A DNA stretch of 64,000 nt, taken from assembly GCA_040387875.1 (NCBI GenBank), contig JAZKCX010000039.1:2127-66126 (forward strand), in the 5' to 3' direction. The notes beneath the pieces were generated by a model. The model was not told the origin of the DNA. It saw nothing but the letters and a program-made list of their open reading frames with translations, and did not search any database. Of this stretch, positions 40,518-61,844 are shown piece by piece (position 1 is the stretch's first letter; each line of letters starts with the position of its first letter). The translations under genes and the position numbers were made by a program. The stretch comes from Pseudomonadota bacterium. Lineage in GTDB: Bacteria; Pseudomonadota; Gammaproteobacteria; Burkholderiales; Burkholderiaceae_C.

Positions 40518-40522
40518 GCGGC

Positions 40523-41944: not shown

Positions 41945-41947
41945 CGC

Positions 41948-43132: not shown

Positions 43133-44592
43133 GGATTTCTGCTGCTCGCTGCTGCCGTGGGTGTGGCGTTGTTCAGTGCGGTGTCGGTGGCGTTCCAGCC
43201 GCCGCCCATGGCGCGGTACAGCGCCACCCAGGCAGCGCGGCGCTCGCGTTGCAGGCTGGCCAGCGCGGTGTCGGCAGCCAGCGCGGTGCGGCGTGCGTCT
43301 TCCAGCTCCACCAGGCTGGCCAGTCCGCTCTGGTAGCGGGCCTCGGTACCTTTGAACGATGCGCGGTAGCCTTCGCTGGCAACCTTGGCGTCGTCGCTGC
43401 GCTGGGCCGTGCTTTGCAGGTTGACCAGCGCTTCTTCGACCTCGCGCACCGCCTGGCGCACCTTGCTGCGGTAGAGCGCAGCGGCCTCCACATAGCGGGC
43501 CTCGGCCGACGCCACGTTGGCGGCGCTGCGGCCGCCGTCAAACAGCGGCAGGCTCAGCGCGAGGGGGCCAATCGCCCAGGTGTCGGTATCAAAGGTCATG
43601 CCGGCCGCGCGGTAACGCAGCGCGCCGATGGAGCCGCGCAGCGTGAGCCGCGGGTAGCGCTGGGCCTGGGCGCTGCCCAGATCGGCGCTGGCGGCGGCCA
43701 CTTCGCGTTCGGCGTTGAAGATGTCGGGTCGCTGGCCGAGCGCCTGCGCTGGCACAGACGCTACCGAAACAGGAGCAAAGTCTTGAATATCCGCACCGGC
43801 TACTGGCAGTTTTGATCTTAAATCTGGCTCCTGCCAGCCGCTCAGGGCCACCAGGCCCTTGATGTCGATGTCGCAGAGTGCGCGCTGCTGGGTGGCGCGG
43901 CCACGGCCTTCGGCAGCGCTGGCGCGGGCCAGTGCGGCTGCGGCCGGGGCCTGAAAACCGGCCTGGGCGGCAAGCTCCGCGAGCCGGGCAGTCTCGCCGC
44001 GCGAGGCGGCGTCGGCCTGGCTGATCTGCAGCAGGCGCTCACAACTGCGCAGGCTGCTGTACAGGTTGGCGACTTCCGCCGCCACCGACACGCGGGCATC
44101 GTGCCACTGCGCCTGGGCGCCGTCGAGCCGGGCCTGGGCGGCGTCGCGGCTGGCGCGGTTGGCACCAAACAAATCTATCTCCCAGGCGGCCTGCAGGCCA
44201 CCGGTGATGGTGGTGGCCACAATGTCGGGCGGCGGGCTGCCGGGGGCAATGACGGTTTGCACCGGCTCGCGGCTGGCGCTCAGGTTGGCGTCGAGCGTCG
44301 GCAGCAATGCCGCCCCAGCGGTGGTGCGGCTGGCGCGGGCCTGGGCAATGCGCGAGGCGGCGGTGGCTACCGTGGGGCTTTGCTGCTGGGCCGACTCGAT
44401 CAGCGCCACCAGCAGCGGGTCGCCCTGCTGTTGCCACCACTGCGACAGATCGGTCAGCGAGCCCTGGTGCGGCAGCGGCGCCTGCCACTGCGTGGGAATC
44501 TCCGGTACGGGCTGCGGACTCGCCATGGGCGCAGCGCAGCCGGCCAGCGCCAGCAGCACGGCGAGGGCGGAGAGGGTTTTGGCAGAGGTCAA
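43129..44592 (-). CDS. efflux outer membrane factor lipoprotein, NodT/OprM family
   Basis: Lipobox LALAGCA and two TolC-like repeat halves are present. The gene overlaps both neighbours by 4 nt. Confidence 0.9.
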   Translation of the reverse strand: MTSAKTLSALAVLLALAGCAAPMASPQPVPEIPTQWQAPLPHQGSLTDLSQWWQQQGDPLLVALIESAQQQSPTVATAASRIAQARASRTTAGAALLPTLDANLSASREPVQTVIAPGSPPPDIVATTITGGLQAAWEIDLFGANRASRDAAQARLDGAQAQWHDARVSVAAEVANLYSSLRSCERLLQISQADAASRGETARLAELAAQAGFQAPAAAALARASAAEGRGRATQQRALCDIDIKGLVALSGWQEPDLRSKLPVAGADIQDFAPVSVASVPAQALGQRPDIFNAEREVAAASADLGSAQAQRYPRLTLRGSIGALRYRAAGMTFDTDTWAIGPLALSLPLFDGGRSAANVASAEARYVEAAALYRSKVRQAVREVEEALVNLQSTAQRSDDAKVASEGYRASFKGTEARYQSGLASLVELEDARRTALAADTALASLQRERRAAWVALYRAMGGGWNATDTALNNATPTAAASSRNP

Positions 44593-45278
44593 ACGCGGCC
44601 TTTCGCAGGTGGCAGGGCGGCACGGCGCGCCACCTCGCTCGCTACCATGGCTTCGGCATAGCCCACCATGCGCTGGGCAAACAGGTCAATTGCCTCGGGC
44701 GCGGCAATCAGCCCCGGCCGGATGGCCTGCATCACGTCGCGGCCCACAAACATGTGCACGCCCAGCCCGACGATGGAAAACGCCAGCCGGTGGATATCGT
44801 CATCGGCCTGCGTGACGCCCAGATGGCGGCACAGCACGGCCACCAGCGCCGCATGGGCGGGCTTGATGCCGTTGTCAATTTCTTCGGCCCAGATGCCGGT
44901 GGGCTCGACCATTTCGCGGAAATGCAGCCGCATGCACTGCTGCACCAGCTCGCCCTGCTTGAGCGGCTCCATAAAACCGCCCAGCAGGCCCTGCAACGCC
45001 TGCCGCAGCGTGAAATCGGGGCTGTCGTAACGGGTGGTGTCGTCGCAGGGGCCGCCCATGGGCTCGTTGAATGCCGCCTTGTACAGGCCGGCCTTGTCGC
45101 CAAAGTAGTAGCTGATGGCGCCGATGTTGGCGCCGGCGGCCTGCGCAATTTCGCGGGTGGAAGTCTTGGCAAAACCTTTTTCGGCAAACAGCGCCAGCGC
45201 CGCGTGCAGCAAGCGCTGGCGCGACACCGCGCCGTCACTGCGCTGGGCGGGGGTTTCGGTACGTGCGGAGGAATCCAT
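44589..45278 (-). CDS. TetR/AcrR family transcriptional regulator
   Basis: The N-terminal HTH is LLHAALALFAEKGFAKTSTREIAQAAGANIGAISYYFGDK. It is the first gene of the tetR-OMF-MFP operon. Confidence 0.85.
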   Translation of the reverse strand: MDSSARTETPAQRSDGAVSRQRLLHAALALFAEKGFAKTSTREIAQAAGANIGAISYYFGDKAGLYKAAFNEPMGGPCDDTTRYDSPDFTLRQALQGLLGGFMEPLKQGELVQQCMRLHFREMVEPTGIWAEEIDNGIKPAHAALVAVLCRHLGVTQADDDIHRLAFSIVGLGVHMFVGRDVMQAIRPGLIAAPEAIDLFAQRMVGYAEAMVASEVARRAALPPAKGRV

Positions 45279-45335: not shown

Positions 45336-47186
45336 TTAGCCGGACTCGATTTTTCGCTTTTCCACCCTGCAGAATTGGTAGGCGTAACCTTTCGCACCGA
45401 TAAACGCCTTCTGCAGGATGCAACTACCTGCGTTGATGGAAAAACCACGGCTTTCGGCTGTTTTTGACGCGCCCTCCAGAAGCGTTGTGTTTTCCGATTC
45501 CAACTCCTGTTGTCGTTGCGGATACAACTGGAATTCACACGTCACATCACTGGAATTTTGTTTGACTCGGGGAATGACCGCCCCGGCGAGCTCGGTAGTT
45601 CGATTGATATAGCGGGTCACCAATTTGCACGCTGTACTGCCAGTGCGGATCTGGTTGCGTTGCAACCAACGGTTCAGTCTGGAAAGCCTGTGGGCGCGCG
45701 CATCCACACGCCCTTGAACAATTGCGTACAAACCCCCTGGACGACTGTCAACGAGGGATTCCGCACGCTCCCAGAAAACTTTTGATTGTGAAATTTCAGT
45801 GAGCGATACAAACACCAGCTGTTCAGGGAAGGCGGGCGTGATCCAGGCAAAAGGAGGGCCGATCAACAACACCATCGATGAATCGGGCTGGCTGATCTTG
45901 GGCACCTCCACTGCATAGCTTTCGCTGGACCACGGCGCATGGCCCCACGTTTCAAACCGCACTAGCGTTACCAGCATCGAAAACACCAGCATCATTGGCA
46001 CAAACCGGTTTGCCTTTGTAGGGCCGACGAGCGCCCTGAAAGCCAACCAGCACGCGATCGGCAACAACATTTCTATTGATACCGCATACCGACCAATGCT
46101 GAACAACAACATCCAAGTGAAGTAGCTGGTGGCCAGGAATATCAGGAAAGGACGAATACCATGGGATTCCCCTGTGGCGGGCAATCCTTCCGCGCGATTC
46201 GATCTTGCACCGGAGATTTTCCTGAGAAGATTTCGGAAAAACCAGACCCAGAGCAGGGTGTAGCTGATCGGCCATAGCCACAGCGTCAGCTTTATTTCAC
46301 CCATCCGCTGCGGCGAGACGGCTACCACATAGGGGTAAAAAATGGCTTCGACAATGCTGCGTGGCATCCAGCTTGTATCGCGCAGGGAGCTTTGTTCAAA
46401 AAGCTCTGACCGAAAAACCGAATTGAACATCGGAAATACCGGGTTTCCGAAATGCTGCCACATCGTCAAATACCAAAACCCGCCCGTCACCGCCATGCCG
46501 AACAACACGCCCAGGCCAAAAATGGTCGTCACCGCCAGGCGCTGTGGTAACGGTAGCCTGAGACAGAGCAGGCTGACAAAAATACCCACCGCGTAGATCG
46601 CATTGGTTAATTTGAGCCCGGCACCCATACCCACCAGCAGGGCGGCCAGAAAGCAGATGCCCAGGCCACTTCGCCAATCTGATTCCAGTGTTTTCCACGA
46701 CTTGAGAATCAGATACAGCGCACCCAGATTCAGCAAGGCTGTTGTGTTGTCGCCCATGGTGTTACCCAACTCGGACAGGAAGGTCGGTGCAAGACACCCG
46801 CCCAGTGCCAGCAACACCACCACATGCGTTTTCGTATCGGTGGGCAGTAACAGGCGCGCAATGGCCAGCAACAAGCCAAAATTCAGCCCATGTAGACACC
46901 CCATGATGAAACCTGTCGCGGGGGGCCACAGGTATTTGGACATCCAGTAATAAGGAATATCCAGCAGCGGATTGAAGTAACTTTGGATTCCCGCAGGCGC
47001 CAGATCAGTGCCTGTTCGGTTGGTCAGATAGGCCCATGGGTTGTAGACATGGTAATTCTGAAGATCCCAGTTGGCATCCTGTCCTGCATACAGCGAAAGC
47101 AGGCCAAACAGCGCAGCACCCACAGCCCACAAAGGAATCTCGTACCCACACAGTCTTGGCGCCAGAAATGCAGATGGTCTGATCAT
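45336..47186 (-). CDS. polytopic membrane protein, candidate GT-C-fold glycosyltransferase (GT87/DUF2029-like, uncertain), with a ~190 aa C-terminal soluble domain
   Basis: A 616 aa protein with about 11-12 hydrophobic helices in the first ~420 aa. An acidic/aromatic loop (DANWDLQNYHVYNPWAY) follows helix 1, as in GT-C enzymes. The gene is clearly lower in GC than its neighbours. Confidence 0.45.
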   Translation of the reverse strand: MIRPSAFLAPRLCGYEIPLWAVGAALFGLLSLYAGQDANWDLQNYHVYNPWAYLTNRTGTDLAPAGIQSYFNPLLDIPYYWMSKYLWPPATGFIMGCLHGLNFGLLLAIARLLLPTDTKTHVVVLLALGGCLAPTFLSELGNTMGDNTTALLNLGALYLILKSWKTLESDWRSGLGICFLAALLVGMGAGLKLTNAIYAVGIFVSLLCLRLPLPQRLAVTTIFGLGVLFGMAVTGGFWYLTMWQHFGNPVFPMFNSVFRSELFEQSSLRDTSWMPRSIVEAIFYPYVVAVSPQRMGEIKLTLWLWPISYTLLWVWFFRNLLRKISGARSNRAEGLPATGESHGIRPFLIFLATSYFTWMLLFSIGRYAVSIEMLLPIACWLAFRALVGPTKANRFVPMMLVFSMLVTLVRFETWGHAPWSSESYAVEVPKISQPDSSMVLLIGPPFAWITPAFPEQLVFVSLTEISQSKVFWERAESLVDSRPGGLYAIVQGRVDARAHRLSRLNRWLQRNQIRTGSTACKLVTRYINRTTELAGAVIPRVKQNSSDVTCEFQLYPQRQQELESENTTLLEGASKTAESRGFSINAGSCILQKAFIGAKGYAYQFCRVEKRKIESG

Positions 47187-48319: not shown

Positions 48320-50281
48320 CTACGCCAGCGAACGGAAAAGCGCCTCGAGCTTGCGCGCAGACTCTGCGGGGTTGGTGGCGGGGCTGTCTTCCAGCCGCTG
48401 CCGCATGCCCTGGCGCAGTGCTTCGAGTTCCTGCGGATGGCTGGCGTAGTGTTTGCAGCGGGCCACATATTCGTCGGTGCTGTGGGCGACCAGCTCGGTC
48501 AACGCCAGCGAAGTAAGCAGCGAAAGACTCACGCGCGAGACGTGGGTCTTGCCGGCCAGGGTGATCACGGGAATGCCCATCCACAGCGCCTCGATGGTGG
48601 TGGCGGTGCCGTGGTAGGGATAGGGGTCCAGCGCAATATCGGCCTGCTGGTACAGCGCCAAGTGCTGCGCAAAACCCATGCGCGCGTGCATCTGTACCCG
48701 GCCCAAATCAAAACCCATGCGCTCAAAACGCTGCAGTTGCTCGGTCTTGAGCACCGCGTCGGACAGCGGCGCGGCTTTCACAATCAGCCGGGTCTCGGGC
48801 ATCTCCTGCATGATGCGCGACCACAGCGCCAGGGTCTCATCGGACAGCTTAGCGAGGTTGTTGAAGCTGGCCAGCGTGAGGTAGCCGTTGCGCAGCAGCG
48901 GTGTGGGCCCGCAGGGCGGCAGTTCGGGTGGCTTGCGGATACACAGGAAGGGCGCCGGCATGCGCAGCAACTTTTCTGAATGGATCGCATCGGCCAGCTC
49001 GGGCGGGTCGGCAATCGCATCCGAGATGCGGTAGTCCATGGTCGAAAGACCCGTGGTGTTGGGATAGCCCAGGTAAGTCATCTGCACCGGCGCCAGACGC
49101 TGCCCGAAAATCGGCAGGCGGCTGTCGCCTGTATGGCCCGACAGGTCGATCAGCACATCGACCTTGTCGGCAACAATCTGCGCCGCAAGTTCTTTGTTGC
49201 TGCTGCGGCCCAGCTCGCGCCAGCGGTCGCCAAAATGCTGCTTGAGCTGCTCGGTCAGGCCGTCCGACTTGTCTCCGGCGTTGTAGAGCACGATATCGAA
49301 CTGTTTGCGGTCGTGCTGCATCAGCACCGGCGCAATGATCTGGCCGACCGGGTGCTGGTAGAAATCGGGGCTGACGTAGCCCACGCGCAGCTTGCGCTTG
49401 CCGAGGGCGAGCTTGGGTTTGGCAACCGCATCCGCCGTACCGGTGTGCCAGCCACGCGTCCACGCGACGTGTTCGCTGTAGATGTAAGCCGGGTCGTGCG
49501 CCTGGTAGTTGAGCATCAGCAGGTAGTTGGACACCGCCGTGGTGTTGGACGGGTTGCCCTGGGCACTGGAACGGAACAGCTCGGTGGCACGCGCAATATC
49601 GCCATTGCGGTAACACATGCCGCCCAGAAAGGTGCTTGCAGGCGTGTAGTCGGGAAACTTTTCCAGGCACTCGGTCCAAAGCGCCCGCGCTTCGGCGAGC
49701 TGGCCGGTTTCCTGATGGGCCCGGCCCAGCAGAAAGTAGCTGCGGTCGGAGTGTTCCGCCGCATGGAAGACCTTGCAAAAAGGCAAGGCATCGCTCCAGC
49801 GGTTTTGCCGGGCCAGGAGCTCGATCAGGTTGGACTGCGCCAGCCGCATGCCGGGCTGCAGGATAACGGCCTCGGTCAGGTGTTCCAGCGCTGCTTCAAA
49901 CTCGTGCAGTTCGGTCAGCACATAGCCCAGGTTGTTACGGGCCTGGCCCACCTCAGGCCGCAAGGCCACCGCACGGCTGTAGCACATTTTGGCGGCGGGG
50001 AAATCACGCAGCGTCGAATAACAGTTGCCCAGCGACAGCACTGCGTCGTAGCCCAGCTTGTCCTGGTCAAACAATGGCCGCAGCAAAAAGATCGCGTCTA
50101 CCGAGCGACCATTTTTGTTGAGATAGTCCGAGAGTGCGGCATGCGCTTCGGTGTTGTCCGGAGCGAAGGCGAAGGCCCGCAGGTAGGCAGCCTTGACGCT
50201 GTCAATGGAGGTGCCAGGCTGCTGCGACAGGCGCCGGGCCTGCAGCAGTGCCGCCGCAAAGCGTACTTCGTCGTTGTTCAT
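48320..50281 (-). CDS. TPR-repeat protein with a C-terminal GT41 (SPINDLY/OGT-type) glycosyltransferase domain
   Basis: The N-terminal ~280 aa are TPR repeats. The C-terminal half is collinear with OGT catalytic lobes ([75 protein letters not shown]). Confidence 0.8.
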
Positions 50282-50515
50282 GCGTTGGTGTCTGATGAAG
50301 CAGGTGAACGGGGTGGCGGGCACACGCCCGCGTGCCCCCGCCTGCCATTATGCGGACTTCGCAACCAGTGTTTTGCCTGCGTGCCAGCGCCACCGCAGCG
50401 GCCAAAAAAATCCTGTAAGAAAGGGCGGCCTGTCCCTACAAAGAAGCACCGCAACCTGAATGATCAGTACCGTGCGGTGTCGTTCAGTCATCTCAATTTC
50501 CTATTGGAGTTTTCA

Positions 50516-50803
50516 ATGATCGCTAACCAAGCCAAGTTCGCCGCTTCCTTCGCCCTGACCGCCGCCACGCTCGCGCTGGCCGCAACCGCCTTCGCCGCCG
50601 ACGCCCCCAAGGGCTCCAGCGGCAAGGCCGTCGCCGCCAAAGACAAGGTGCATTGCTACGGCCTGCATGAGTGCAAGGGCAACAGCGCCTGCAAGACCGC
50701 AGAGCACAGCTGCAAAGGCCAGAATGCCTGCAAGGGCCATGGCTTTGTGGCTTCGACCGCATCGCAGTGCCTGACCAAGGGCGGCACCATCGGCGACCTG
50801 TAA
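50516..50803 (+). CDS. DUF2282-type Cys-rich precursor peptide with a Sec signal peptide (bufferin BufA-like)
   Basis: A GGAG Shine-Dalgarno sequence lies 6 nt upstream. The product is 95 aa, with a signal peptide ending in AFA-ADA. The core [33 protein letters not shown]...QCLTKGG has 6 Cys. The gene lies immediately upstream of the DUF692 gene. Confidence 0.75.
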
Positions 50804-50875
50804 TCTGGTCTGACCTTGCCCCTGACATCCTGCCTGCAAGGGCGGGATGTTTTTTCATTTCCGGGTGTCTTCACC

Positions 50876-52600
50876 ATGCCTAAAAACCTCTACTCCCTGA
50901 CGGTGCCACACGCCGGTTTCGGTCTGGGTTTGCGAACCACCCACTACCCCGATTTTCTTGCATGCAGGCAGCCACTGGACTGGCTGGAAATCATCACGGA
51001 CAACTACCTGGTGGATGGCGGCAAGCCGCTGGTGACGCTGGACGCGATCCGCCGCGACTACCCCCTTGCCATGCATGGCGTGGCCCTGTCACTGGGTGCG
51101 CCTGCGGGCCACGACCGCGCCTATCTGAAGAAGGTCAAGGCGTTGGCAGACCGCATTGATCCCCTCTGGATTTCCGACCACCTGTGCTGGATCGGGCCGG
51201 AGCCGCAGCAACTGCACGACCTCTATCCCCTGCCTTACACCGAAGAAGCCGCACGCCACCTGATAACGCAGATCCGCCAGGTCCAGGACGTATTGCAGCG
51301 CCGCCTGGTAGTGGAGAACGTCTCCAGCTACATTGATTTCGCCTACTCGGCAGCCACCGAATGGGAGTTTCTGAGCCATATCGCGAACGAGGCCGATTGT
51401 TCCCTGCTGGTCGATATCAACAACATCTATGTCAGCAGCGTGAACCACGGCTTTGACCCCCTCGCCTATTTGCGTGGCCTGCCGGCGCAGCGTATTCAGC
51501 AGTTCCATCTGGCTGGCCATTCCAACGAGGGCACCCACATTGTTGACACCCACGACCACCCGGTGGCCGAGCCCGTGTGGGAACTCTACGCGCAGGCGTG
51601 CCAGATGTTTGGCCCAGTGACCACCATGATCGAGCGGGACGACCACATCCCGCCTTTGCGGGAGTTGATTGAAGAGCTGGACCGTGCCCGTGGCATTGCC
51701 GCCGCCCTGGAGAACGAACAGCCCCGCAGCGCGTACCATGCCTCGGCGTTGCGCTGGGCTGCGCCCCTCGCAGCACAAGACCCGGGCTTGCAGGCAATGC
51801 GGCAGCGCATGGCCACCTACGTCTTGGGCCCCGCTAACGGCACCGAAGCCATGGCGCCTATGGTGCGCCAAGCGCCGGGTGTGGATGTGCCTCTGCGCCT
51901 TTCCATCTACCACCACGCCTACCGCGCCCGGCTGGCCGAAGTGCTGGCGGACACCTTTGAGAAAACCGTGCTCTATATGGGCTCGGACAGTTTCACGCAG
52001 CATGCCCGTACGTTTGCGGAGCAAAACCCGCCGCTCACCCGAAGCCTGGGTCGGTACGGCGCGAGCTTTCCGGCCTACCTGGCGGCGCTTTATCCCCACA
52101 ACCCGGAGTTGCGCGAGCTGGCCTACCTGGACTGGGACTTGCGCAGCTGTTTTGACGGTGCCGATGCGCCCGCCCTGGATGCGGCGGCCGCGGCGGCCGA
52201 CGCACAGCAATCGTGGTTGCTCCATACGCCCGCAATACACCCCAGTCTGGTGCTGCGCGAAATTACCAGCAACGTGGTGCAGCTCTGGAAGTCCATCGAC
52301 GAAGACCAGGAGGTTCCCGCACCGGTCTATCGCGATACCCCCATGGCTTTGGCAGTCTGGCGCAAAGGGCTGCAGCCACACTTCAAAACGGTAGAGGGCA
52401 TGCAGGCCGTCTGGCTGCGCCGGCTGATGGCAGGTGCGTCCCTGTCGCAAGCCTGTGGTGAATTTGAGGGCACAGAGCACATGCCTGAGATCGCCGTATT
52501 CGGCCAGTGGCTGGCTGAATGGCTGGAAGACGAACTGCTGAGCCCACCACCGCTGCTGCAGCCATTGGCACACGCTGCAGCAGCAGAAGCCGTCAGTTAA
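50876..52600 (+). CDS. fused DUF692 (MNIO, MbnB/BufB-like) and DUF2063 (MbnC/BufC-like) protein
   Basis: Residues 1 to about 285 are DUF692-like (GFGLGLRTTHY, LEIITDNY, HGVALSLG, SDHLCW, ENVSSY, DINNIYVS, FHLAGH, IERDDHIPPL). Residues from about 310 to the end are DUF2063-like (RLSIYHHAYRARLAEVLADTF, RSLGRYGASFPAYL). The ORF is continuous at 574 aa. Confidence 0.8.
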   Translation: MPKNLYSLTVPHAGFGLGLRTTHYPDFLACRQPLDWLEIITDNYLVDGGKPLVTLDAIRRDYPLAMHGVALSLGAPAGHDRAYLKKVKALADRIDPLWISDHLCWIGPEPQQLHDLYPLPYTEEAARHLITQIRQVQDVLQRRLVVENVSSYIDFAYSAATEWEFLSHIANEADCSLLVDINNIYVSSVNHGFDPLAYLRGLPAQRIQQFHLAGHSNEGTHIVDTHDHPVAEPVWELYAQACQMFGPVTTMIERDDHIPPLRELIEELDRARGIAAALENEQPRSAYHASALRWAAPLAAQDPGLQAMRQRMATYVLGPANGTEAMAPMVRQAPGVDVPLRLSIYHHAYRARLAEVLADTFEKTVLYMGSDSFTQHARTFAEQNPPLTRSLGRYGASFPAYLAALYPHNPELRELAYLDWDLRSCFDGADAPALDAAAAAADAQQSWLLHTPAIHPSLVLREITSNVVQLWKSIDEDQEVPAPVYRDTPMALAVWRKGLQPHFKTVEGMQAVWLRRLMAGASLSQACGEFEGTEHMPEIAVFGQWLAEWLEDELLSPPPLLQPLAHAAAAEAVS

Positions 52601-54314
52601 TCAGCGGCCGGTAGTAATTGGCCGGTGGCGGAGCAACGTCTTCGACCGGCGGCCGGGACTCCACAGGCGGAGGCGGCTGCACCGCAGGCCGGAATTCGCG
52701 TGCCGGTGGCGAGCTGACCAGCGGCCGCAACTCGACCGCTGGCCGGGGTGGTACGGGTGCCGCCAGGCGAGGCTCAATGTCCAGCGCGGCCACCGGTGCG
52801 CCAAGCGCGGAGCTGCGCTTGAGCACCGGACTGCGTGGTTCTGGCGGGAGGGGCACCGAAGCCGTGTTGCAGTTGGCGTTGTCGGTACGGCAGACCGACT
52901 CGCGCAGGCTTTCTGAAAATATGTCGTTGGCATCGGCTTTGGACACCACGCTGTGAATCCAGCCGTTGTCGCTGACGCCATCGACCAGCAACCTGCCGGA
53001 AGTCCTGGCCAGCCGGAATTCGGCAATGCGCAGATCAAACACGCCGTCTGCCAGATCCAGCAGCAGATTGAAATGCTCAAGCTGAGCGTCCAGCACATTG
53101 GGCAGTGTTTCGCGGCCAAACCCGAGCAGCCGGCGTTTGGACTGGTAGGCGAGACCCGCCTCGCTCACCGCTTCCATCAGTTGCTTGACCCGATCCGCGC
53201 CGGAAGAGGTACGCCCCCAGGAAGCAGATGTCACCTCCACCAGATTGGCGCGCGCAGCCTCCAGCCGGGCCTCTTGTGCGCCTACTTCCACCAGCGCCGC
53301 CTTGATGCGCGACTGCACATCAAAGCCGTTACCCAGGTTGAAGTTCAACTCCAGCGCTGCCCGCGTGGGCTCGGTTGTCAGGTCGCGGTTGTCTTTGGTA
53401 CGGGACACCACTGCATCCAGCGTGGGAAAGCGGCCGGATTTTTCACGGTCCACGTTCGCCTTGGCGCGCTCTATGCGGCCGCGGGCCTCGCCCAGCTCGG
53501 CGCTGTTGGCCTCGGCAATCTGAATGGCCTGGGCCAGCGAACCCACCGCCCACTCCTTGGGCGTGGCCAGCGTCGGCAACCCGGCGGCATTGGGCACAAA
53601 CTTGAAATAGGTTTCAAACTTGGCCAGCGCATCGATCAGCAGGGCATCAAATTCCTGCCGCTTGGCGGCTGCGCCCGACCGGCGCGATGCCGCAAGGCGC
53701 GCATCACCCTGACCGGCAGCACCCAGCTCGACCTTGCGCTGTTCGGCGCGGGTCAACTCATCAAGAACCAGCGTGGAGCGGGCGGCAATGCGCTTTTTCA
53801 GATCAAAGCGCTGCACCTGGAGGTAAGTCGTGATGCCATCAAGCACCACCTTCTGGCTGGCAACCCGCAAACCCTCTTCCAGCGCACTGGAGTTGGCAGT
53901 GGCAGCCCGCTCGCGGGCATTGATGCCACCGGCATCCAACAGGCTGACCCGCGCGCTGGCGGTCAGGGCTGTAAAGCGCTGCGAGGACGTGTTGCCGGGA
54001 GACGTAAAGGTGCTGGAGCGACCGGTCGCAGTGGCCAGTGAAAAACGTGGAAACCGGGCCCGTTTGGCGGCTTCGGTCTCAAACCCGCTGCTGGCCAGAC
54101 TGGCCTGCGCGGCCAGAACCTCGGGATGGTCCTGGGCCATATTGAGTATGCCCAGCTTGACCTTGTCCGAGTACTCGACCGTACCCAGCGAACGGCCTGA
54201 GAGTGTGGTGGAGGGCGCCAGAACCGGCGCGCCATCGTCCTGCGCATGCGCGTTGAGGGCGGCCACGAACAGGGCAACCGCAAGATGCAGCGGAGAGGGT
54301 CTGAACACGTTCAA
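52593..54314 (-). CDS. TolC-family outer membrane protein of the T1SS, with a 90-aa Pro-rich C-terminal extension
   Basis: The TTG start overlaps the MFP stop (TTGA). A signal peptide ends in AHAQ, and two TolC repeat halves are present. The tail is rich in Pro and Arg. Confidence 0.85.
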   Translation of the reverse strand: MNVFRPSPLHLAVALFVAALNAHAQDDGAPVLAPSTTLSGRSLGTVEYSDKVKLGILNMAQDHPEVLAAQASLASSGFETEAAKRARFPRFSLATATGRSSTFTSPGNTSSQRFTALTASARVSLLDAGGINARERAATANSSALEEGLRVASQKVVLDGITTYLQVQRFDLKKRIAARSTLVLDELTRAEQRKVELGAAGQGDARLAASRRSGAAAKRQEFDALLIDALAKFETYFKFVPNAAGLPTLATPKEWAVGSLAQAIQIAEANSAELGEARGRIERAKANVDREKSGRFPTLDAVVSRTKDNRDLTTEPTRAALELNFNLGNGFDVQSRIKAALVEVGAQEARLEAARANLVEVTSASWGRTSSGADRVKQLMEAVSEAGLAYQSKRRLLGFGRETLPNVLDAQLEHFNLLLDLADGVFDLRIAEFRLARTSGRLLVDGVSDNGWIHSVVSKADANDIFSESLRESVCRTDNANCNTASVPLPPEPRSPVLKRSSALGAPVAALDIEPRLAAPVPPRPAVELRPLVSSPPAREFRPAVQPPPPVESRPPVEDVAPPPANYYRPLIN

Positions 54315-55642
54315 GGCTCCTGGAATGCTTCACGCTGGGCCTTCAGCACCGGCCTGAGAATGTACCAAATGAAGGGGTCACGCCCGACCAGCAGATCGAC
54401 CTCAACCTCCATACCCGCCGTGATGGCCCGCTCGGGAATGCCCACGTACTCCTTGTCGGTACTGATCAGCAGCCGGTAGTAGGAGCGCACAGTGGGGTTG
54501 GTCGGGTCGCTGTCGGCATCGGCACCGACAAGGTTGACTTTCCCATTCACCGCGCCATAGCGCAGGAAATCGTAGGCGCTCACTTTGACGCGTGCTGTCT
54601 GTCCGGTGTTGACATAACCACGGTCACTGGGATTGAGCTTGGCTTCGATGATGATCTGCTTCTGGTCAGGCACCACTTCCATGATCTGCTCACCCGGCTT
54701 CACCACCCAGCCCGGGCTGGGGTTGCGCAGCCCCTTGATGATGCCGTCGGCCGACGCGCGCACGACCGTGCGCGAACGCTGGATTTTGGCACGTGAAAGG
54801 TCTTCGCTCAGACTCGCAATCTGCCGCTCGGCAGTGGCCAGTTCGTCAGAGGCTCGCCGGCGGTAACGGCCCTGCGCCTCGACAATTTTGCCTTGCGCTT
54901 CCGTAATGGCGGAACCGGCAGAGACCAACGCCTGCCGGGCGGTAGCAAGGTCGCCCCGTACGGCCTCCATCTGGCGCTGCTTTTCCAGGACCTCGAGTTG
55001 CGGAATCAGTTTTTCGTCCAGCAGTTGCTGGGACAGATCGACTTCTTTTTTGTAGAGCGCCAGCCGCGACGTCAGCCCATTGACCCGCTCCTGCTGCTCG
55101 ACCAGCTTGCTGCGGGCCTGCGCCAATTGCGACTCTGCGGTGTCCACCACGCCTTTTTGCTCCAGCGAGCGGGCTTCAAAAGCGCCCGATTCGGCCTGGA
55201 AGACCGATTCGTCAATGTCTTTGCCCAGCGCCGCGCGGGTAAAAGGTTTGCCCTGGCTTTCGGCCAGCAGGCGCGTACGCGTGGCCTGCAACGAGGCGTA
55301 GCGAACCGTCAGTTCTTCGAGGTTCAGGCTGTTACCGCCCAGATCAATTTCTACCAGCGGTTGGCCCGATTTGACTTTTTCACCTTCCTTAACAAGTACC
55401 GCACTGACAATACCACCCTCCAGGTGCTGCACCACCTTGACCTGGTCGGAGGGAATCACTCTGCCCGGCGCAATCACCACCGACTCCACCGGGAACCCCA
55501 GACCGAACGCGGCGAGAACAACCACCCCGCCCCACAAAAGCCATGAGGTGATGGATTTTTTTCTGGAATAGGGAAGCGCTTTGGTGGAGCTTGCAGGATT
55601 CTGCAAAACCAGCGGGAGGGTATTGGCGTTCTTGGAGTCCAT
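54311..55642 (-). CDS. HlyD-family type I secretion periplasmic adaptor
   Basis: An N-terminal TM, the HLEGGIV motif, a long coiled coil and a C-terminal barrel are present (443 aa). Confidence 0.9.
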   Translation of the reverse strand: MDSKNANTLPLVLQNPASSTKALPYSRKKSITSWLLWGGVVVLAAFGLGFPVESVVIAPGRVIPSDQVKVVQHLEGGIVSAVLVKEGEKVKSGQPLVEIDLGGNSLNLEELTVRYASLQATRTRLLAESQGKPFTRAALGKDIDESVFQAESGAFEARSLEQKGVVDTAESQLAQARSKLVEQQERVNGLTSRLALYKKEVDLSQQLLDEKLIPQLEVLEKQRQMEAVRGDLATARQALVSAGSAITEAQGKIVEAQGRYRRRASDELATAERQIASLSEDLSRAKIQRSRTVVRASADGIIKGLRNPSPGWVVKPGEQIMEVVPDQKQIIIEAKLNPSDRGYVNTGQTARVKVSAYDFLRYGAVNGKVNLVGADADSDPTNPTVRSYYRLLISTDKEYVGIPERAITAGMEVEVDLLVGRDPFIWYILRPVLKAQREAFQEP

Positions 55643-55676: not shown

Positions 55677-57530
55677 TCAGCTGTCCGCCGGCTCGGCAGG
55701 CGCAGAGGATTTCGGCGCGGCAGAAATTGCTGCGGTTGCCGCAGGCGCCGGCAACTTGACGCCGAACAGCTTGGGCACCATCACCGATGCGGAGCCACTC
55801 TCGACATTGCCCGCCCCGGTGACGTAATGCACCTGGCTGGCACTGGCCACAATACGCAGCGAGTGCGTCACCACAATGATGGTGCGGCTGCGGGCCGCAG
55901 CCATCAGCGCGGCAATCAGCGCCGTCTCCGCCTGGTAATCCAGGTCATTGCTGGGCTCATCCAGAATCACAACAGCCGGATCGCGCAGGAACAACTGGGC
56001 CAGCGCAAGCTTGCGGCGTTCACCCATGGACAGGCCCATGCCGCCCTCACCCAGCACCGTGCGGTATCCTGCTGGCAAGCGCGAAATAAAGTCGTGTGCA
56101 CCGGACAGGCGGCAGGCTGCAACAATTCTTTCGTCGGTCTGGTCGGGGGCGGCGCGGCGGAGGATTTCAATCAGCTCTCCGCCAAAAAGATATACCTCTT
56201 GCGACAGGATACTGATCCACTGAACCAGCTCTTCCCGGGCAAACTGCGACAGGTCATATTCATCAACCGAGATTTTTCCGTTGGTGGGGCTATACAGGCC
56301 CGCAACCAGTTTGACCAGCGTAGATTTGCCGGCGCCGTTTTTACCGACAATCACATGCAGACCACCGGGCCCGATTTCGAGATTGACGTTCTCCAGCACG
56401 GAGGCGGAGTTTTCGTTGAACTGAAAGCTGACTTCCTGCAGCCGGATTGCCCCGCGCGGCTTGGGCAACACAATGCCACCCGGGCGGCGATCCGTTGGTT
56501 CATTGAAGACGTTTTCAAGCCGCTTTGCGGCCTCGGTGGCGGTTGCAAGAGATCGCCAGTTGGAAGCCAGCCCCGCGACGGGAGACAGGGCTTTGGACGA
56601 CAACATGCTGGCGGCAATCAGACCGCCGACAGTCATCCATTGCTGCATGACTGCCAGAGCCCCGACCGACACCACCACAACGGAGAAAACCGACAGCATC
56701 ACAGTGGTCAGCTCCCGGGCGCGCTCTATCTCGCCGTTTTTTCGGAAACTCTCGCTGAGCCAGGCGTTGTAGTTCTGTTGCCACATCGCTACGACAGGCT
56801 GGTTGTGCCCCAGACTTTTCAGGGTTTCACGGGCCCGGCAAATCTCTGACGTCACCTGGTCCAGGCTACGTCCGCGGAGCACTTCTTCGACACGCCCGGC
56901 GCGTACTTCATCAGCCCACCACCAGGCAAAAAACGCAAGTACTCCCAAAAACAGCAAAAGCACTGGCAACAGCGGCCATGCCACCATGCCAATAATGACG
57001 AGTGCAAAAAGAGCCACGGGCATGTCAAAGATGGAGGTCATCAGCCCACCGGTCACTGTTGCACGCACTGCGCCCACGTCGCGGAACAACAAAAACCATG
57101 CTGTGGCAGGCCGGGACTCCAGCATGCGCAAAGGCCGCTGCAGCATGGACTGCAACAAGGCGTTCGACACCCCATGGTCAACAATTGCGCCGGCATCGCG
57201 CAGCGACCGGGACCGCTTATTGCGCAGCCACAACTCAATCAGCAAAAACACAAAAATACCGGCCAGCAGGGCGACCAGTGTGGAGTAGCCACTGCGACCA
57301 ATCACGCGGTCGTACACCTGTAGCGTGAAAATTGACGGCAACAACCCGAACAGACTGATGGGCAGCGACCACCAAGCCGCCTGCTTCACCAAGGGGTAGG
57401 CACTGGTAAATGCGTCGTGCAGCGCGCCACCGTAGGGAGTGACCGCAGAGTCGGTAGCCGTCTTGTTCACTAACTGACGGGGCAACAGGAATTTGAGCAT
57501 GGTTGTTACAGGAAGATAGTCGAGCGCCAA
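55677..57530 (-). CDS. type I secretion system ABC permease/ATPase (PrtD/HasD-like, no C39 peptidase domain)
   Basis: The TMD carries LQVYDRV. Walker A GKNGAGKST, signature LSMGERRK, Walker B VVILDEPSNDLD and H-loop VTHS are present. The maximal ORF starts at TTG 57530, and the first ATG is at 57500. Confidence 0.9.
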   Translation of the reverse strand: MALDYLPVTTMLKFLLPRQLVNKTATDSAVTPYGGALHDAFTSAYPLVKQAAWWSLPISLFGLLPSIFTLQVYDRVIGRSGYSTLVALLAGIFVFLLIELWLRNKRSRSLRDAGAIVDHGVSNALLQSMLQRPLRMLESRPATAWFLLFRDVGAVRATVTGGLMTSIFDMPVALFALVIIGMVAWPLLPVLLLFLGVLAFFAWWWADEVRAGRVEEVLRGRSLDQVTSEICRARETLKSLGHNQPVVAMWQQNYNAWLSESFRKNGEIERARELTTVMLSVFSVVVVSVGALAVMQQWMTVGGLIAASMLSSKALSPVAGLASNWRSLATATEAAKRLENVFNEPTDRRPGGIVLPKPRGAIRLQEVSFQFNENSASVLENVNLEIGPGGLHVIVGKNGAGKSTLVKLVAGLYSPTNGKISVDEYDLSQFAREELVQWISILSQEVYLFGGELIEILRRAAPDQTDERIVAACRLSGAHDFISRLPAGYRTVLGEGGMGLSMGERRKLALAQLFLRDPAVVILDEPSNDLDYQAETALIAALMAAARSRTIIVVTHSLRIVASASQVHYVTGAGNVESGSASVMVPKLFGVKLPAPAATAAISAAPKSSAPAEPADS

Positions 57531-57880: not shown

Positions 57881-59755
57881 TCAGCGGTCCAGCAAACCAC
57901 CCAGTGCACCAGTGACAGGGTTGGCTTCTGCGCCGCCCAGGCTGGTCACGGGGATAGGCAGGCCACCGCCCAAACCACCACCCAGCGACCCAAGCAGATC
58001 GCCCGGGATCAGGTCCGTTGGTACCGGCAGGCCACCGCCAGCTCCGCCCAGAGAACCGACCAGCTCAAGAACGGGTTCGAGCAAGCCGCCCGCGCCGCCT
58101 GTGAGCAGATCGGTAGGTACAGGCAGGCCACCAGCGCCGGCGCCCAGCAAGTCGGTAGGAACCGGCAAGCCCCCACCGCCCAGCGAGCCGAGCAGGGAAG
58201 TCAGCGGGCCGAGAGCGCCGCCGGCATCACCACCCAGCAAGCCGCCGAGACCACCCAAACCACCCGCGTCAAGCGCGCTTGCGCCCGTGGTTGCGCCGCC
58301 GCCGATGACGCCGCCACCCAGCAGTGCAAGAACCGGCGCAAGGAGGCCGCCACCGTCAAGCGAACCGGTACCGCCGAGCAGACCGCCAAGCAGGTTGCCG
58401 CCCACCTGTGCGCCGCCTTCGCCACCACCTGCGCCAACGCCGCCGGAGACAGAGCCCAGACCGCCATTGAGGAAGTTGCTCAAACCGTTTGTCAGCTGAT
58501 CAACCTGCAGATTCGCGGGTCCGATCAGCGATTCCGTAGCGCCTTCGCCCAGGATTCCGTCGACGATGGGTTGCAGAACATCGTTGCCTACGGAGGTGAC
58601 GCTGAAGCCCAAGTTGTCCACCGGGTCGAGCTGATTGGGGGCGTCGAATCCAGGGTCAATACCGAGGGACTCGGTGATGTCGTTACCAGTGTCCGTAACG
58701 GTTTTGACCAGATCGTCCAGAGGTTGCAGCGAACCACCGATGCCAGCGCCTGCAGCGCCCAGTGCACTGCCGTCCAATGCATCGGTCAAGTTGTCGACCA
58801 ACTGCGCCGTAGGATCCAGGAGACCAGGCTTTTGCGCACCTGGACCGGTACCCGTACCGGTGCCGGAGCCAGTGTCCGTACCGGTATTGGTACCCGTATC
58901 GGTTCCCGTGTCTGTACCGGTGTTGGTTCCAGTATTGGTGCTGGTGTTAGTGCCCGTATCGGTACTGGTATTGGTTCCGGTATTGGTGCTCGTGCTCGTG
59001 CCAGTACTGGTACTCGTGCTCGTATTCGTACCAGTGTTGGTGCCCGTGGTAGTACCGGTGCTGGTGCCGGTATCCGTACCCGTGTTCGTGCCCGTGTTGG
59101 TATTGGTGCTTGTGCCCGTGCCTGTACCGGTCGCTGTTGCGGTGCTGGTATCTGTGCCGGTTCCAGTGCTGGTGCCCGATCCCGTACCGGTTCCGGTGTT
59201 GGTGCCGCCCGAGCCGCCGTCGTCGTCATCGTTCAGCGCAGCGGCCAAACCGGCCAGACCCAGAAGTGCCAGAGGCAACCATCCCAGACCTTCGGTACCT
59301 GCAGCGCCCTTTTTCTTCACAGCAACCGATGCGGCATCGGTGGCGTCGGGTGCGGCCACGAACAGGTCGCCCGTGGCCATATCGACCGTCACTTGCTCAA
59401 CACCGGGGGACAGCGTCTTGACACCAATAACCGCATCCGATCCACCGGAGAAAACGCCGTTCAACGGGGTTTTGCTGCCGCCAGGGCCGGGGAAAGTTAC
59501 GTTGGCCGAGCCGCCTTGCGGAACAATAACGCGGTCACCAGCCAACAGCGAAGTATTTCCTTCGGCCGCAAACCTTGCGCTTCCGCGCACAACTTCCACG
59601 CCGGGAGTAGCACCAGACAGAACGCCTAAGCCTCCCGCCTGAGAAGCTGCTACGGGAGCGGCAGACGCGGCAGCAGGGCTTGCCTGGGCGAGGGTCGTGA
59701 TGTCTTCACCAGCGGTCAACGGGCCTTTCAGGCTCGTTTCTTGAGTTGCGATCAT
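57881..59755 (-). CDS. T1SS-linked repetitive Cys-free acidic protein, paralog P2
   Basis: The ATG at 59755 is preceded by AAGGA. There is no signal peptide. The layout is: conserved N-terminal domain, KKK-hydrophobic-DDDD segment, a 119-aa X-Thr array, an acidic D/L-rich domain shared with P3, then a Gly-rich C-terminus with [10 protein letters not shown] repeats. Confidence 0.8.
58847..59203 (-). repeat. X-Thr dipeptide array in P2 (60 consecutive units, 6-nt period)
   Basis: Hand check of aa 196-314 of the 635-aa ORF. Every even position is Thr, twice Ser, with no register shift. The odd positions are only G, N, S, D, A or T. Confidence 0.9.
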
Positions 59756-60137
59756 AAAAAATCCTTTGGAAAGCAGGATATGGGGCACTAAAACAATGCC
59801 TTGATTATAGTTATCGGGCAGGGAGTGGAGAAACTTTAATGCTTTTGTTTATGGCAATTCTCATCAAATTGTGTGACTTAATTCATGAAATCGATTGCAA
59901 AGTATCTACCCGCTTGTCCCAGAGAGGGATTTAGTCACCGATTAGGGTAAAGTTTAAGTGGGGCAGATGGTTGGAGTAATACTAATGTTTGGAGAGCCAA
60001 AACCGGCACCCCAAAAGCCCGCCATGGCAGTGTTTCTAAAGGGTGAAACTCGATGCTGCAACAGGCTTGGATGGCCAAAGCAGGAGTTCAGCGTCGACCT
60101 ATTAAAAGCATTACTTCAAAAGCACAAAACAAAATGC

Positions 60138-60166
60138 AAAATGGCTGCCTACGAGGCAGCCATTTT
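60138..60166 (-). terminator. rho-independent terminator after cargo gene P3
   Basis: The sequence AAAATGGCTGCCT-ACG-AGGCAGCCATTTT lies 58 nt downstream of the P3 stop. Confidence 0.6.
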
Positions 60167-60223
60167 GGCGAGAAGACAAAGCGCACCAAACCTATGTGAA
60201 ATTTGCGTGCGCCAAGCCTCGAT

Positions 60224-61642
60224 TTACAACATCGACAATATGGGCGCCAGCGGAGATGGGTTGCTGGCCGCATCGGTGGAGCTGGAGATTGGCGGTATGG
60301 CCCCTGGCGTGCTGCCGTTGCCGGACACGTTCTCCACAAACTCGGAGCCTGAACCCACAACCACGCCAGGTGTGTTTTCTCCGGTCGCGGTATTTCCAAG
60401 GGCACCCACCGGCGCCAAAACGCTACCAGCACCGCCCAAACTACCGAACATGCCGGTCAGCGGCCCCAGCAAACCACCCACTCCTGCAGTCTCGCCCACA
60501 CCCAGCAGACCCGAAGAGCCCAGCGCGTTGGTCAGCCCATCCGTCACGAAATCGACCTGCAGGTCTGCGGGACTGATCAGGGTTGCCGTTACGCCATTGC
60601 CCAGGATGGAATCCACCAGCGGAGTGACCGGAACAGACACCACGCCGCCGGTGACATCCGCGGCAAGTGCATCCACTGAATCCAGAGAGTTGGGGTCATC
60701 GGCAAAAAACTCTTCGCCAACGACAGGCGCCAACAGGCCGTTGCCAGCATCGGTAACCGATGCAACCAAGTCATCTACCGGTTGCAAAGATGTACCCAAA
60801 CCACTTGCCAACCCGCCGAGCTCCGCTTTTGCGGCGCCGTCGGCCGGCGCTTCTGCAGCGCCGCTGGGCCCTTCAAGGGCATCGGTCAGATTGTCAACCA
60901 GCGTCGCGGTTGGATCGAGGAACCCCATGCCCTCTGCACCCGTCCCCGTATCGGTGCCAGTTCCGGTCCCGGTATCGGTGCCAGTCCCGGTGCCCGTGCC
61001 AGTGTCCGTACCAATTCCGGTTCCGGTATCCGTGCCAATACCTGTGCCCGTACCCGTATCGGTGCCAACACCGGTACCCGTGCCAGTGCCGGTGTCGGTA
61101 TTGTCCCCACCGCCTCCACCACTACCAGCGAGACCGGCCAGTCCAAGCAAGCCCAAAGGCAGCAGCCAACCCAGCCCGCCGTCGGCCACAGCAGCCTTTT
61201 TCCTGACCAGCAAGGACGACTCGATCTGGGTGAAATCCGGGGGAGCAACAATAAAGTCACCAGCAGCCAGGTCAACCACCACCTGGTCAACACCCGGGGC
61301 AATGGTCTTGACGCCGATCACCGCCTCAGAACCACCAGAAAAGACCCCCACCAAAGGATTGGGATTGCTGGCAGAAGCGGGAAAAGCCACATTGGCCGAC
61401 CCACCTTCGGGCACGATGACCCGGTCACCCAACTGCAGCGCAGCGGACCCTTCGGCAGGCAAGCGGGTTCCTCCGCGGACGATTTCCACGCCCTTAGAGG
61501 CATCGGACAGCACGCCCAGCATGGGCACCGCCTGGGGGGTTGCCGCAGCCGTAGCAGCAGGGGCAACCGCAGCCTGCGCCACCAAGGCATCCAGGCCTGG
61601 TGAGCTTAGAACTTCGGCACTCGTATTAGGGGTAGATTCCAT
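60224..61642 (-). CDS. T1SS-linked repetitive Cys-free acidic protein, paralog P3
   Basis: The ATG is preceded by an AAGAGG Shine-Dalgarno sequence. It has the same architecture as P2: N-terminal domain, RKK-hydrophobic-GGGGGD segment, a 54-aa X-Thr array, the shared [14 protein letters not shown] domain and a Gly-rich tail. Confidence 0.8.
60941..61102 (-). repeat. X-Thr dipeptide array in P3 (27 units)
   Basis: aa 181-234. The even positions are Thr, apart from V192, I202 and I210, which are also beta-branched. Confidence 0.85.
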
Positions 61643-61844
61643 GGGAAACCTCTTAATTGCTCAGAATAACGTCGTACAAGTATACGTAAGGCACGAATCA
61701 AGGCGTACCAGGTCGTACAACCGACTCGCAATTATGTGATTTATTTGCTGTTCCGGGAATTAATTGCCGGAGCGAAAAATAATACGCTCGCGAAATGTGC
61801 TTCAAATTCAATCAAAAACCTATACAAAACCCGCAATTGAAGCC

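Follow-up and report, generated by a model that had tools for sequence, protein, structure and literature searches.

A threonine-alternating array as the probable tether of putative type I secretion substrates in a small Burkholderiales family

The window analysed here, a stretch of 64,000 nucleotides from contig JAZKCX010000039.1 of a member of the Burkholderiaceae, contains two neighbouring genes, P2 and P3, whose products carry long runs in which threonine occupies every second position. The locus raises the question of what such a strictly alternating X-Thr array is for. We propose that it is an extended, disordered and sequence-tolerant tether within a substrate of the adjacent type I secretion system (T1SS) that stays attached to the cell surface, and we regard this as the probable, though far from certain, explanation. 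The two genes and their parts are given below; structures were predicted with AlphaFold 2 (AF2), whose confidence is expressed as the predicted local distance difference test score (pLDDT), and compared with the Protein Data Bank (PDB) using Foldseek.

57881..59788, minus strand: P2 gene, as an open reading frame (ORF) from GTG; probable start ATG at 59755, 624 amino acids
59342..59629, minus strand: P2 N-terminal all-beta domain, predicted RIN-like plug fold (AF2 pLDDT >90; Foldseek 5ix9)
59219..59287, minus strand: P2 Gly/Ala/Leu hydrophobic segment, KKK before and acidic NDDDD after (Kyte-Doolittle mean 1.88 over 17 residues)
58847..59206, minus strand: P2 (X-T)60 array, predicted disordered hydrophilic spacer, with other low-complexity spacers at the homologous site in relatives
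58469..58822, minus strand: P2 helical passenger domain with QVDxLT motifs, conserved family-wide in 1-3 copies
57884..58468, minus strand: P2 Gly/Leu-rich C-terminal region with repeats and conserved tail, putative secretion signal
60137..60167, minus strand: terminator-like hairpin (14-bp stem and T run) between P3 and P2
60224..61642, minus strand: P3 gene, ORF of 472 amino acids, paralogue of P2
61232..61519, minus strand: P3 N-terminal all-beta domain, predicted RIN-like plug fold (AF2 pLDDT ~90; Foldseek 5ix9)
61127..61177, minus strand: P3 Gly/Ala/Leu hydrophobic segment, RKK before (AF2 helix, low confidence)
60941..61102, minus strand: P3 (X-T)27 array, predicted disordered hydrophilic spacer (AF2 coil, pLDDT 36-45), replaced by (NPPPPV/E)n in the syntenic orthologue
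60521..60922, minus strand: P3 helical passenger domain (AF2 helices, pLDDT 80-91)
60227..60520, minus strand: P3 C-terminal region with conserved tail IPPISSS...PLAPILSML, putative secretion signal

The ATG at 59755 is the probable start of P2 because the orthologues begin MIATQ or MIASQ. The two proteins are 62% identical across the N-terminal domain (N-domain), each has an isoelectric point of 4.05 and no cysteine, and after the hydrophobic and acidic junction merely 1-3 lysine or arginine residues occur in 297-449 residues. The exact P3 protein was found in three other assemblies and the exact P2 protein in another, beside ATP-binding cassette (ABC) and HlyD genes; these assemblies appear to represent the same population. 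All four contigs (L001, L002 and L003 with P3, L134 with P2) end in the P3-P2 intergenic region, three of them 1 nt after the P3 gene and the fourth starting 183 nt before P2, and something in this region breaks short-read assembly.

Translation confirmed the register-perfect arrays of 60 and 27 units that had been predicted from the letters alone. The P2 array consists of 60 unbroken X-(T/S) units (amino acids 195-314), its proposed limits of 58847-59203 being right to within 3 nt, and the P3 array of 27 X-(T/I/V) units (amino acids 181-234). In P2 the even positions are filled by 58 Thr and two Ser, and the odd positions by 28 Gly, 12 Asn, 11 Ser, six Asp, two Ala and one Thr. The corresponding residues in P3 are 24 Thr, two Ile and one Val at even positions, the Ile and Val being the exceptions foreseen there, and 20 Gly, six Asp and one Asn at odd positions.

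The arrays are also, as had been claimed, not clean microsatellites. Tandem Repeats Finder gave 62-63% matches at period 6, with the best higher-order periods at 48 and 54 nt (77-82%), and 29 distinct hexamers occur among the 60 units of P2. Where neighbouring positions of the P2 array hold the same residue, the fraction with an identical codon was 0.35, and by our arithmetic about 0.36 would be expected from random draws of Thr codons. The arrays in the window are old, with randomised codons. The further claim that array codons are specifically GC-poor was not supported. The G+C content of third codon positions (GC3) is 0.65 in the P2 array and 0.61 in the P3 array, against 0.633 and 0.634 in the remainder of the respective genes; it ranges from 0.63 to 0.82 in twelve other genes of the window (pooled, 0.75). 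The lower GC3 of P2 and P3 is therefore modest and gene-wide, not a property of the arrays. Likewise, threonine codon usage in the P2 array (ACC.51, ACG.29, ACT.12, ACA.08) is essentially that pooled over the same twelve genes (ACC.54, ACG.27, ACT.10, ACA.09). Three plus-strand ORFs (58571..59629, 58635..59642 and 59958..61739) run antisense across the arrays and have VPVPV- or GTG-type translations. They were rejected as genes and read as shadow ORFs made by the repeats, since the minus-strand frame is the one that is conserved and predicted to fold.

Pfam and NCBIfam were searched with P2 and P3, whole and as separate N- and C-terminal parts, and yielded no family even at E-values up to 10. 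Three hits, all compositional or sub-threshold, were discarded: ser_rich_anae_1 (29.6 bits against a cutoff of 650), Cupin_3 (E 0.0025, under the gathering score) and YPDG_rpt (E 0.065). A profile of the N-domain, used in a full HMMER scan, recovered 51 proteins from 1.84 billion representatives, and every named member belongs to the Burkholderiales. A scan of one genome per species gave ten loci, located in a Burkholderiaceae metagenome-assembled genome (MAG) with three paralogues, two other proteobacterial MAGs, Comamonas, three Variovorax genomes and Acidovorax; an additional member occurs in Lampropedia. A word-index homologue search with the P2 N-terminus returned two fragments, and two profile queries returned one match and none, a poor recovery that may be due to saturation by low-complexity words. 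To judge from these searches, P2 and P3 are paralogues within a small, undescribed family for which Pfam and NCBIfam hold no model.

The members of this family range from 350 to 1600 amino acids, and their parts are arranged alike in every one. A variable leader rich in Ala comes first, then a conserved beta domain (about 95 residues, its spaced glycines invariant), a (K/R)K motif, a hydrophobic segment of Gly, Ala and Leu, and an acidic DDDD patch; after the low-complexity spacer come one or more passenger domains, repeats rich in Gly and Leu, and a conserved extreme C-terminus. The hydrophobic segment, found throughout the family, comprises 17-20 residues with a Kyte-Doolittle mean of 1.3-2.4, and in nearly all members it is preceded by Lys-Lys and followed by an Asp cluster. 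The passenger is a domain of about 120 residues in 1-3 copies with QVDFxTDG motifs. The C-terminus ([LIA]P[IVL][ST]S, 10-15 small residues, P[LV]xGLLxGLL) is kept across proteins of very different length.

In all of the approximately 35 members inspected a low-complexity spacer stands at the same place, although its sequence is not the same. X-Thr spacers are found in L004 (85 units) and L005, an (SD)n spacer of about 150 units in Comamonas L009, and (DA)n spacers in Variovorax L010-L012 and in L008. Spacers of poly-Pro or PA type occur in L007, P0004, P0010, P0015 and P0037, PT-type spacers in P0006, P0021, P0024, L013 and P0033, collagen-like GPX spacers in P0003, P0011 and P0016, and Gly/Asn-rich spacers in L006 and P0007. 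Twelve complete members have spacers of 30-46 residues, mostly Pro-rich, and none is shorter; the longest reach 184 residues (X-Thr, L004) and 309 residues (SD, Comamonas), with P3 (68 residues) and P2 (138 residues) in between. The most direct comparison is with the sister genome L004, which has the same P3-P2 gene pair and an ABC protein 92% identical to that of the window. Outside the spacer its syntenic P3 orthologue shares about 80% identity with P3, but in place of the 68-residue X-Thr spacer it has (NPPPPV/E)n over about 62 residues; a second P3 orthologue, P0005, has a Pro-rich spacer of 65 residues. Because position and approximate length are kept while the sequence is free, we see here a spacer and not a Thr-specific surface, and what is conserved there is a spacer no shorter than about 30 residues, not the X-Thr pattern. 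In P0022 a further segment of roughly 100 residues lies inside the spacer region (FTVTHAPASVNEGQAVVFTVTRTG...TFTVDALTD) and is beta-strand-rich by eye; a folded module can therefore be accommodated there as well.

These comparisons bear on how the arrays arose. The orthologous X-Thr array of L004, with 85 units against the 60 of P2, has a 12/24-nt periodicity at 74-78% self-identity, and that of L005 is built from a 24-nt unit (GTSTNTGT) at 98% self-identity, a sign of recent, clean expansion. On our reading the array came about through in-frame tandem duplication of 6-48-nt blocks and is still being changed by it. The original prediction had contrasted selection on the peptide with slippage, and had suggested comparing the arrays of related strains for signs of the latter. 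Its preference for selection holds for the arrays in the window, with their randomised codons, but not for the L005 repeat or for the difference between 60 and 85 units, and the comparison goes part of the way towards slippage in that lengths and repeat structure do differ between orthologues. We nevertheless think it very unlikely that the array is simply an expanded coding microsatellite drifting near neutrality in a permissive linker, with no requirement as to length or composition. The internal repeats of L005 and the wholly different composition of close orthologues are what such drift would produce. It would not lead one to expect a spacer in every member inspected with none below about 30 residues, nor the 68, 65 and about 62 residues of P3 and its two orthologues, whose spacer sequences are unrelated; moreover, the arrays of the window are identical across several assemblies and not visibly unstable.

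AF2 run on 26 N-domains showed a confident all-beta fold with pLDDT >90 over residues 1-95, and an independent AF2 model of full-length P3, built with 14 homologues, had the same N-domain at a pLDDT of about 90. In the P3 model the hydrophobic segment is a low-confidence helix (pLDDT ~40), the whole X-Thr array is coil (pLDDT 36-45), amino acids 240-380 form a helical bundle (pLDDT 80-91), and the C-terminus is of low confidence. Foldseek returned a sole credible PDB match, 5ix9, for both the P2 N-domain (probability 0.95, TM-score 0.65, root-mean-square deviation 2.7 Å, E 0.99) and the P3 model (probability 1.00, TM-score 0.70, root-mean-square deviation 2.5 Å, E 0.042), the TM-scores being normalised to the 76-residue target. 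A Foldseek search with the helical passenger domain matched no PDB fold. The structure 5ix9 shows the RIN domain at the N-terminus of MpIBP, an adhesin of Marinomonas primoryensis. RIN is a periplasmic beta-sandwich that is too large for the ~20 Å pore of TolC and so plugs it, keeping the adhesin on the cell; RIM, the segment that follows RIN, spans the outer membrane within TolC (PMC5550230). The same plug principle is established for LapA and DvhA (PMC10690286, PMC13090378, bioRxiv 10.1101/358705). At the level of fold prediction, the N-domain of P2 and P3 is thus a candidate retention plug.

The predicted structure also bears on a functional threonine face binding ice, mineral or polysaccharide, another role that had been considered for the array. 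The model for such a face is the TxT ice-binding beta-solenoid of insect antifreezes and of the RIV domain of MpIBP, with which the array shares periodic threonine, and the one-in-two periodicity is all that recommends it. Those solenoids are folded, with coils of 12-19 residues around a hydrophobic or Ca2+ core, whereas the X-Thr arrays have a period of two, are coreless and are predicted to be disordered (AF2 coil, pLDDT <50). Their odd positions contain no hydrophobic residues that could form a core, and orthologues replace the array wholesale by Pro-rich, SD, DA, collagen-like or Gly/Asn-rich spacers. The array also lies beside the anchor and not at the distal tip, where the ligand-binding domains of T1SS adhesins sit (PMC5550230). 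A binding face of this kind is extremely improbable.

Directly downstream of P2 and P3, on the same strand, are the three components of a T1SS:

55677..57530, minus strand: T1SS ABC permease/ATPase, lacking the N-terminal extension (~140 residues) of the LssB/HlyB models
54311..55642, minus strand: T1SS HlyD-family periplasmic adaptor (TIGR01843, 341 bits, over cutoff)
52593..54314, minus strand: TolC-family outer-membrane channel with a Pro-rich C-terminal tail (domain models and conserved synteny)

The ABC-HlyD-TolC set also follows the family genes in L004, L009, L010, L011 and L012, with 52-92% identity to the proteins of the window. Since the triplet follows a family gene in five loci, its link to the family is conserved and not a local coincidence. 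The Pro-rich tail of the TolC protein (52593..52900, minus strand) is about 100 residues long with PPPxxSRP-like repeats, and is mostly missing from the 518-amino-acid L004 orthologue. Between the family gene and the ABC gene, Variovorax and Comamonas encode a conserved protein of about 570 amino acids for which there is no Pfam match (L010:14073-15791 and L009:15335-18559, plus strand). The Comamonas version has a C-terminal extension of about 500 residues that resembles Mur-ligase sequences by eye, and just before it lies a gene for an OmpA-family domain with a lipoprotein-like N-terminus (L009:14800-15321, plus strand). The window contains no equivalent of these neighbours.

The mechanism that we favour would be as follows. 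P2 and P3 would be acidic, cysteine-free substrates, devoid of repeats-in-toxin (RTX) sequences, of the adjacent ABC/HlyD/TolC system, and would most likely be exported C-terminus first. The RIN-like N-domain, being too big for the TolC pore, would hold the protein at the cell. The X-Thr array, which comes after the plug and the hydrophobic/acidic junction, would run through the outer-membrane conduit and, as a stalk, keep the helical passenger off the surface. Such a spacer would have to reach a length of about 30 residues or more, stay flexible or extended without folding, and be either uncharged or acidic, but threonine would not be needed. A polyproline II or extended chain measures about 3.1-3.5 Å per residue, and TolC is about 140 Å long. 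A short helix of about 27 Å together with a spacer of 30-46 residues would then span about 120-190 Å, or about one TolC length, and the spacers of P3 and P2 would stick out further by about 100-300 Å, on the scale of the lipopolysaccharide or capsule layer. Among the roles that the original prediction had listed, an unstructured thread spanning the T1SS channel is accordingly the one we prefer, on account of the T1SS genes in five independent loci, the RIN-like N-domain, the position of the array and its AF2-predicted disorder. The low isoelectric point, the lack of cysteine, the scarcity of Lys and Arg after the junction and the shared C-terminal tail are likewise in keeping with a T1SS substrate.

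Several observations weigh against this proposal. The Foldseek E-values to 5ix9 are weak (0.99 and 0.042), and comparison of the N-domain with PDB sequences, both as a single sequence and as a 26-domain profile, gave no match to RIN and no other credible match. The NCBIfam retention-module and BapA-prefix models do not match P2 or P3, a regular-expression search of both proteins found no RTX nonapeptides (GGxGxDxUx), and none of the ORFs scanned across the window encodes a protein like LapG or LapD. The argument from minimum length depends on our own estimates of length. The dialanine motif discussed below is missing from P0004, P0006, P0010, P0011 and P0016. Finally, the outer-membrane-spanning segment of MpIBP is reported to have no transmembrane sequence (PMC5550230), whereas the hydrophobic 17-20-mer of P2 and P3, with Lys-Lys before it and an Asp-rich flank after it, looks like an inner-membrane anchor with the N-terminus inside and the C-terminus outside. 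Were it a genuine helix in the inner membrane, the N-domain would lie in the cytoplasm, and the short spacers could not reach the surface.

That last point leads to a different account, in which the array would be a periplasmic spacer that keeps the inner membrane and the helical domain a fixed distance apart, and the protein perhaps an accessory of the T1SS rather than its cargo. The hydropathy and charged flanks of the segment in nearly all members are in keeping with this account, as are its helical appearance in the AF2 model of P3 and the spacers of 30-46 residues, which suit a sub-periplasmic distance. A precedent is TonB, a Sec-inserted inner-membrane protein in which a Pro-rich (Glu-Pro/Lys-Pro) periplasmic spacer follows a membrane-embedded N-terminal segment. 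Its spacer is likewise an extended, distance-spanning dipeptide repeat, but it is charged and Pro-based, and TonB has no T1SS link and no plug domain. Against an inner-membrane anchor, the N-domain is predicted to fold like the plug that sits at TolC in the periplasm, no signal peptide is present, and the segment is unusually Gly/Ala-rich with an AF2 confidence of about 40. In addition, the acidic C-terminal part of 300-1400 residues, nearly free of Lys and Arg, has no evident way through the inner membrane other than the adjacent T1SS, and the conserved motif at the extreme C-terminus is in keeping with a T1SS signal. We consider this account rather unlikely.

The retained adhesins LapA and MpIBP are the closest systems to the surface tether that we propose. 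As in those systems, ABC, membrane fusion protein and TolC-like genes lie beside the substrate genes. The N-terminal domain, about 95 residues long, is a beta-sandwich with spaced glycines and a predicted fold like that of RIN; directly behind this plug comes a non-globular segment, and then passenger domains and the C-terminal signal region. Many, though not all, members of the P2/P3 family have two alanines about 100 residues past the start of the fold (GAAG, KAAV or AAAG), often following the (K/R)K motif; P2 has KGAAG, P3 has KAAV and several relatives have AAAG, and the LapG site that follows the retention domain has the motif [T/A/P]AAG (PMC13090378). There are also differences. The adhesins range from thousands of residues to 1.5 MDa, whereas the family reaches 350-1600 amino acids without RTX nonapeptides or Ig-like extenders, and its passenger is helical and Gly/Leu-rich. 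Where the adhesins have the 12-kDa RIM in the conduit, the family has a hydrophobic G/A/L stretch and then a hypervariable array, and it has no sequence similarity to retention modules. A model of release regulated by LapG and LapD was not adopted, given that the dialanine is not universal and that neither protein was detected among the scanned ORFs of the window. For these reasons, together with the missing RTX repeats, P2 and P3 should not be filed as members of the LapA family, which they resemble in apparent working mode.

The original prediction had named two glycosyltransferase candidates near the arrays, of which one proved genuine.

48320..50323, minus strand: tetratricopeptide repeat (TPR) protein with a GT41 (OGT-like) glycosyltransferase domain (PF13844, E 5.6e-48)

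The other, a polytopic membrane protein of 616 amino acids (45336..47186, minus strand; GC3 0.63, as low as P2 and P3), matched no Pfam, NCBIfam or PDB sequence, and its identification as a GT-C glycosyltransferase was rejected for want of family or PDB support. The GT41 enzyme opens the possibility of a mucin-like stalk, in which the Thr and Ser residues of the array would be O-glycosylated in the cytoplasm by the neighbouring TPR-GT41 protein before export, making the stalk stiffer and protecting it from proteases. This is compatible with the tether that we favour, to which it adds a modification. The gene is a bona fide GT41 gene 8.5 kb away; in L004 its orthologue starts 160 bp past TolC on the same strand, and in the window only a bufferin operon stands between them. 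Both genomes with X-Thr spacers carry a GT41 gene, and threonine makes up half of the array residues. In staphylococcal SD repeats nearly every serine is glycosylated by SdgB and SdgA, which guards against proteolysis (PMC3794999). On the other hand, the DA, poly-Pro, PA and Gly/Asn spacers have few or no hydroxyl residues; since the spacers of many members contain no Ser or Thr at all, glycosylation cannot be a family-wide trait or requirement. The Variovorax and Comamonas loci, within their extent, contain no GT41 gene, and the window and L004 are such close relatives that their shared synteny is weak evidence. A bulky glycan would still have to pass the channel, and we know of no glycosylated T1SS substrate. 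Glycosylation of the array in the window is unlikely; that the X-Thr and Comamonas SD spacers are dense acceptor arrays for an operon-linked GT41 enzyme, and so O-glycosylated mucin-like T1SS tethers, is decidedly doubtful.

The operon between TolC and the GT41 gene (50516..52600, plus strand) is of the bufferin type, encoding a copper-related ribosomally synthesised and post-translationally modified peptide. It is convergent with TolC, overlaps the end of that gene, and is missing from the equivalent site in L004. Its precursor gene (50516..50803) encodes a BufA2-family protein (NF050166, 97.8 bits, over cutoff), and 50816..52600 encodes an MNIO maturase BufB (NF050167, 358 bits, over cutoff) fused to a DUF2063/HvfC-like domain. 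A second tripartite efflux system lies further away (37404..45278, minus strand) and comprises:

44589..45278, minus strand: TetR/CecR-type regulator
43129..44592, minus strand: OEP outer-membrane factor
41948..43132, minus strand: HlyD-type adaptor
37404..40517, minus strand: AcrB-family resistance-nodulation-division (RND) pump

Strict alternation of threonine had been thought to be without a characterised bacterial precedent. Metagenome contigs were scanned for (ACNNNN)24AC, and poly-Thr and dinucleotide-type matches were removed. Strict (T-X)n arrays of 25-234 units were found in at least 84 ORFs from the 120 metagenome stretches listed. Among these listed matches most have Pro, Ala or Asn as X and serve as linkers in large secreted proteins, a few such as L096 and L072 are of Gly type, and none of the 84 ORFs has the N-domain of the P2/P3 family. 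Together with the characterised, strictly alternating Pro-Thr box of Cellulomonas fimi CenA (PMC8209791), these counts weaken the claim to novelty. The pattern class is common, and the proline-free flavour with Gly, Asn, Ser and Asp is a less frequent variant. Three of the metagenomic proteins join an anchor to such an array: L096 has a transmembrane-like segment followed by more than 100 (GT)n units, L112 is a lipoprotein with 52 mixed X-Thr units directly after the lipobox, and in L072 the array is (TG)29. An anchor with a tether of this kind behind it looks like a design that recurs in unrelated proteins.

The PT boxes of CenA and the metagenomic PT, NT and AT linkers, which are often glycosylated, have threonine at every second residue in strict register and act as spacers between domains. 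Their X, however, is mostly Pro, Ala or Asn, whereas in P2 and P3 Gly, Asn, Ser and Asp take this place and Pro is absent, and these linkers join the catalytic and binding modules of Sec-exported enzymes. The nearest analogues in function are the SD stalks of the staphylococcal Clf and Sdr proteins, which are long, strictly alternating dipeptide arrays of variable length with mixed synonymous codons. Extended and disordered, they separate the functional domain from the cell anchor (PMC10367597), and their link to a dedicated glycosyltransferase (PMC3794999) has a possible counterpart in the GT41 gene; within the P2/P3 family, the Comamonas L009 member even has an SD spacer of about 150 units. 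Whether made of SD repeats or rich in Pro and Gly, staphylococcal stalks all behave as extended disordered rods although their sequences are unrelated (PMC10367597). P2 and P3 differ from Clf and Sdr in belonging to a Gram-negative T1SS instead of a sortase/LPXTG wall anchor, in an N-proximal rather than C-proximal array, in the X-Thr pair itself, and in a nearby transferase of GT41 type instead of SdgA/SdgB.

The X-Thr repeat is therefore ordinary in kind, a low-complexity extended linker, and the more useful object is the small, unannotated Burkholderiales family in which it is found: compact, non-RTX proteins paired with their own T1SS and with an apparent RIN-like plug. Within this family the segment after the plug has been swapped among at least seven unrelated low-complexity types with a minimum length kept, which amounts to a natural experiment on what a polypeptide needs inside the TolC/T1SS conduit and on how long a surface tether has to be. 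It could guide the design of minimal T1SS surface-display scaffolds, for which there is an engineered LapA system (bioRxiv 10.1101/358705). If the link to GT41 were true, it would raise the question of glycoprotein export by T1SS. P2 and P3 would then be, to our knowledge, the first T1SS cargo that is glycosylated. They would belong to a new class of compact surface proteins, plugged at TolC, in which a hydrophobic helix followed by a hypervariable repeat would make up the conduit segment.

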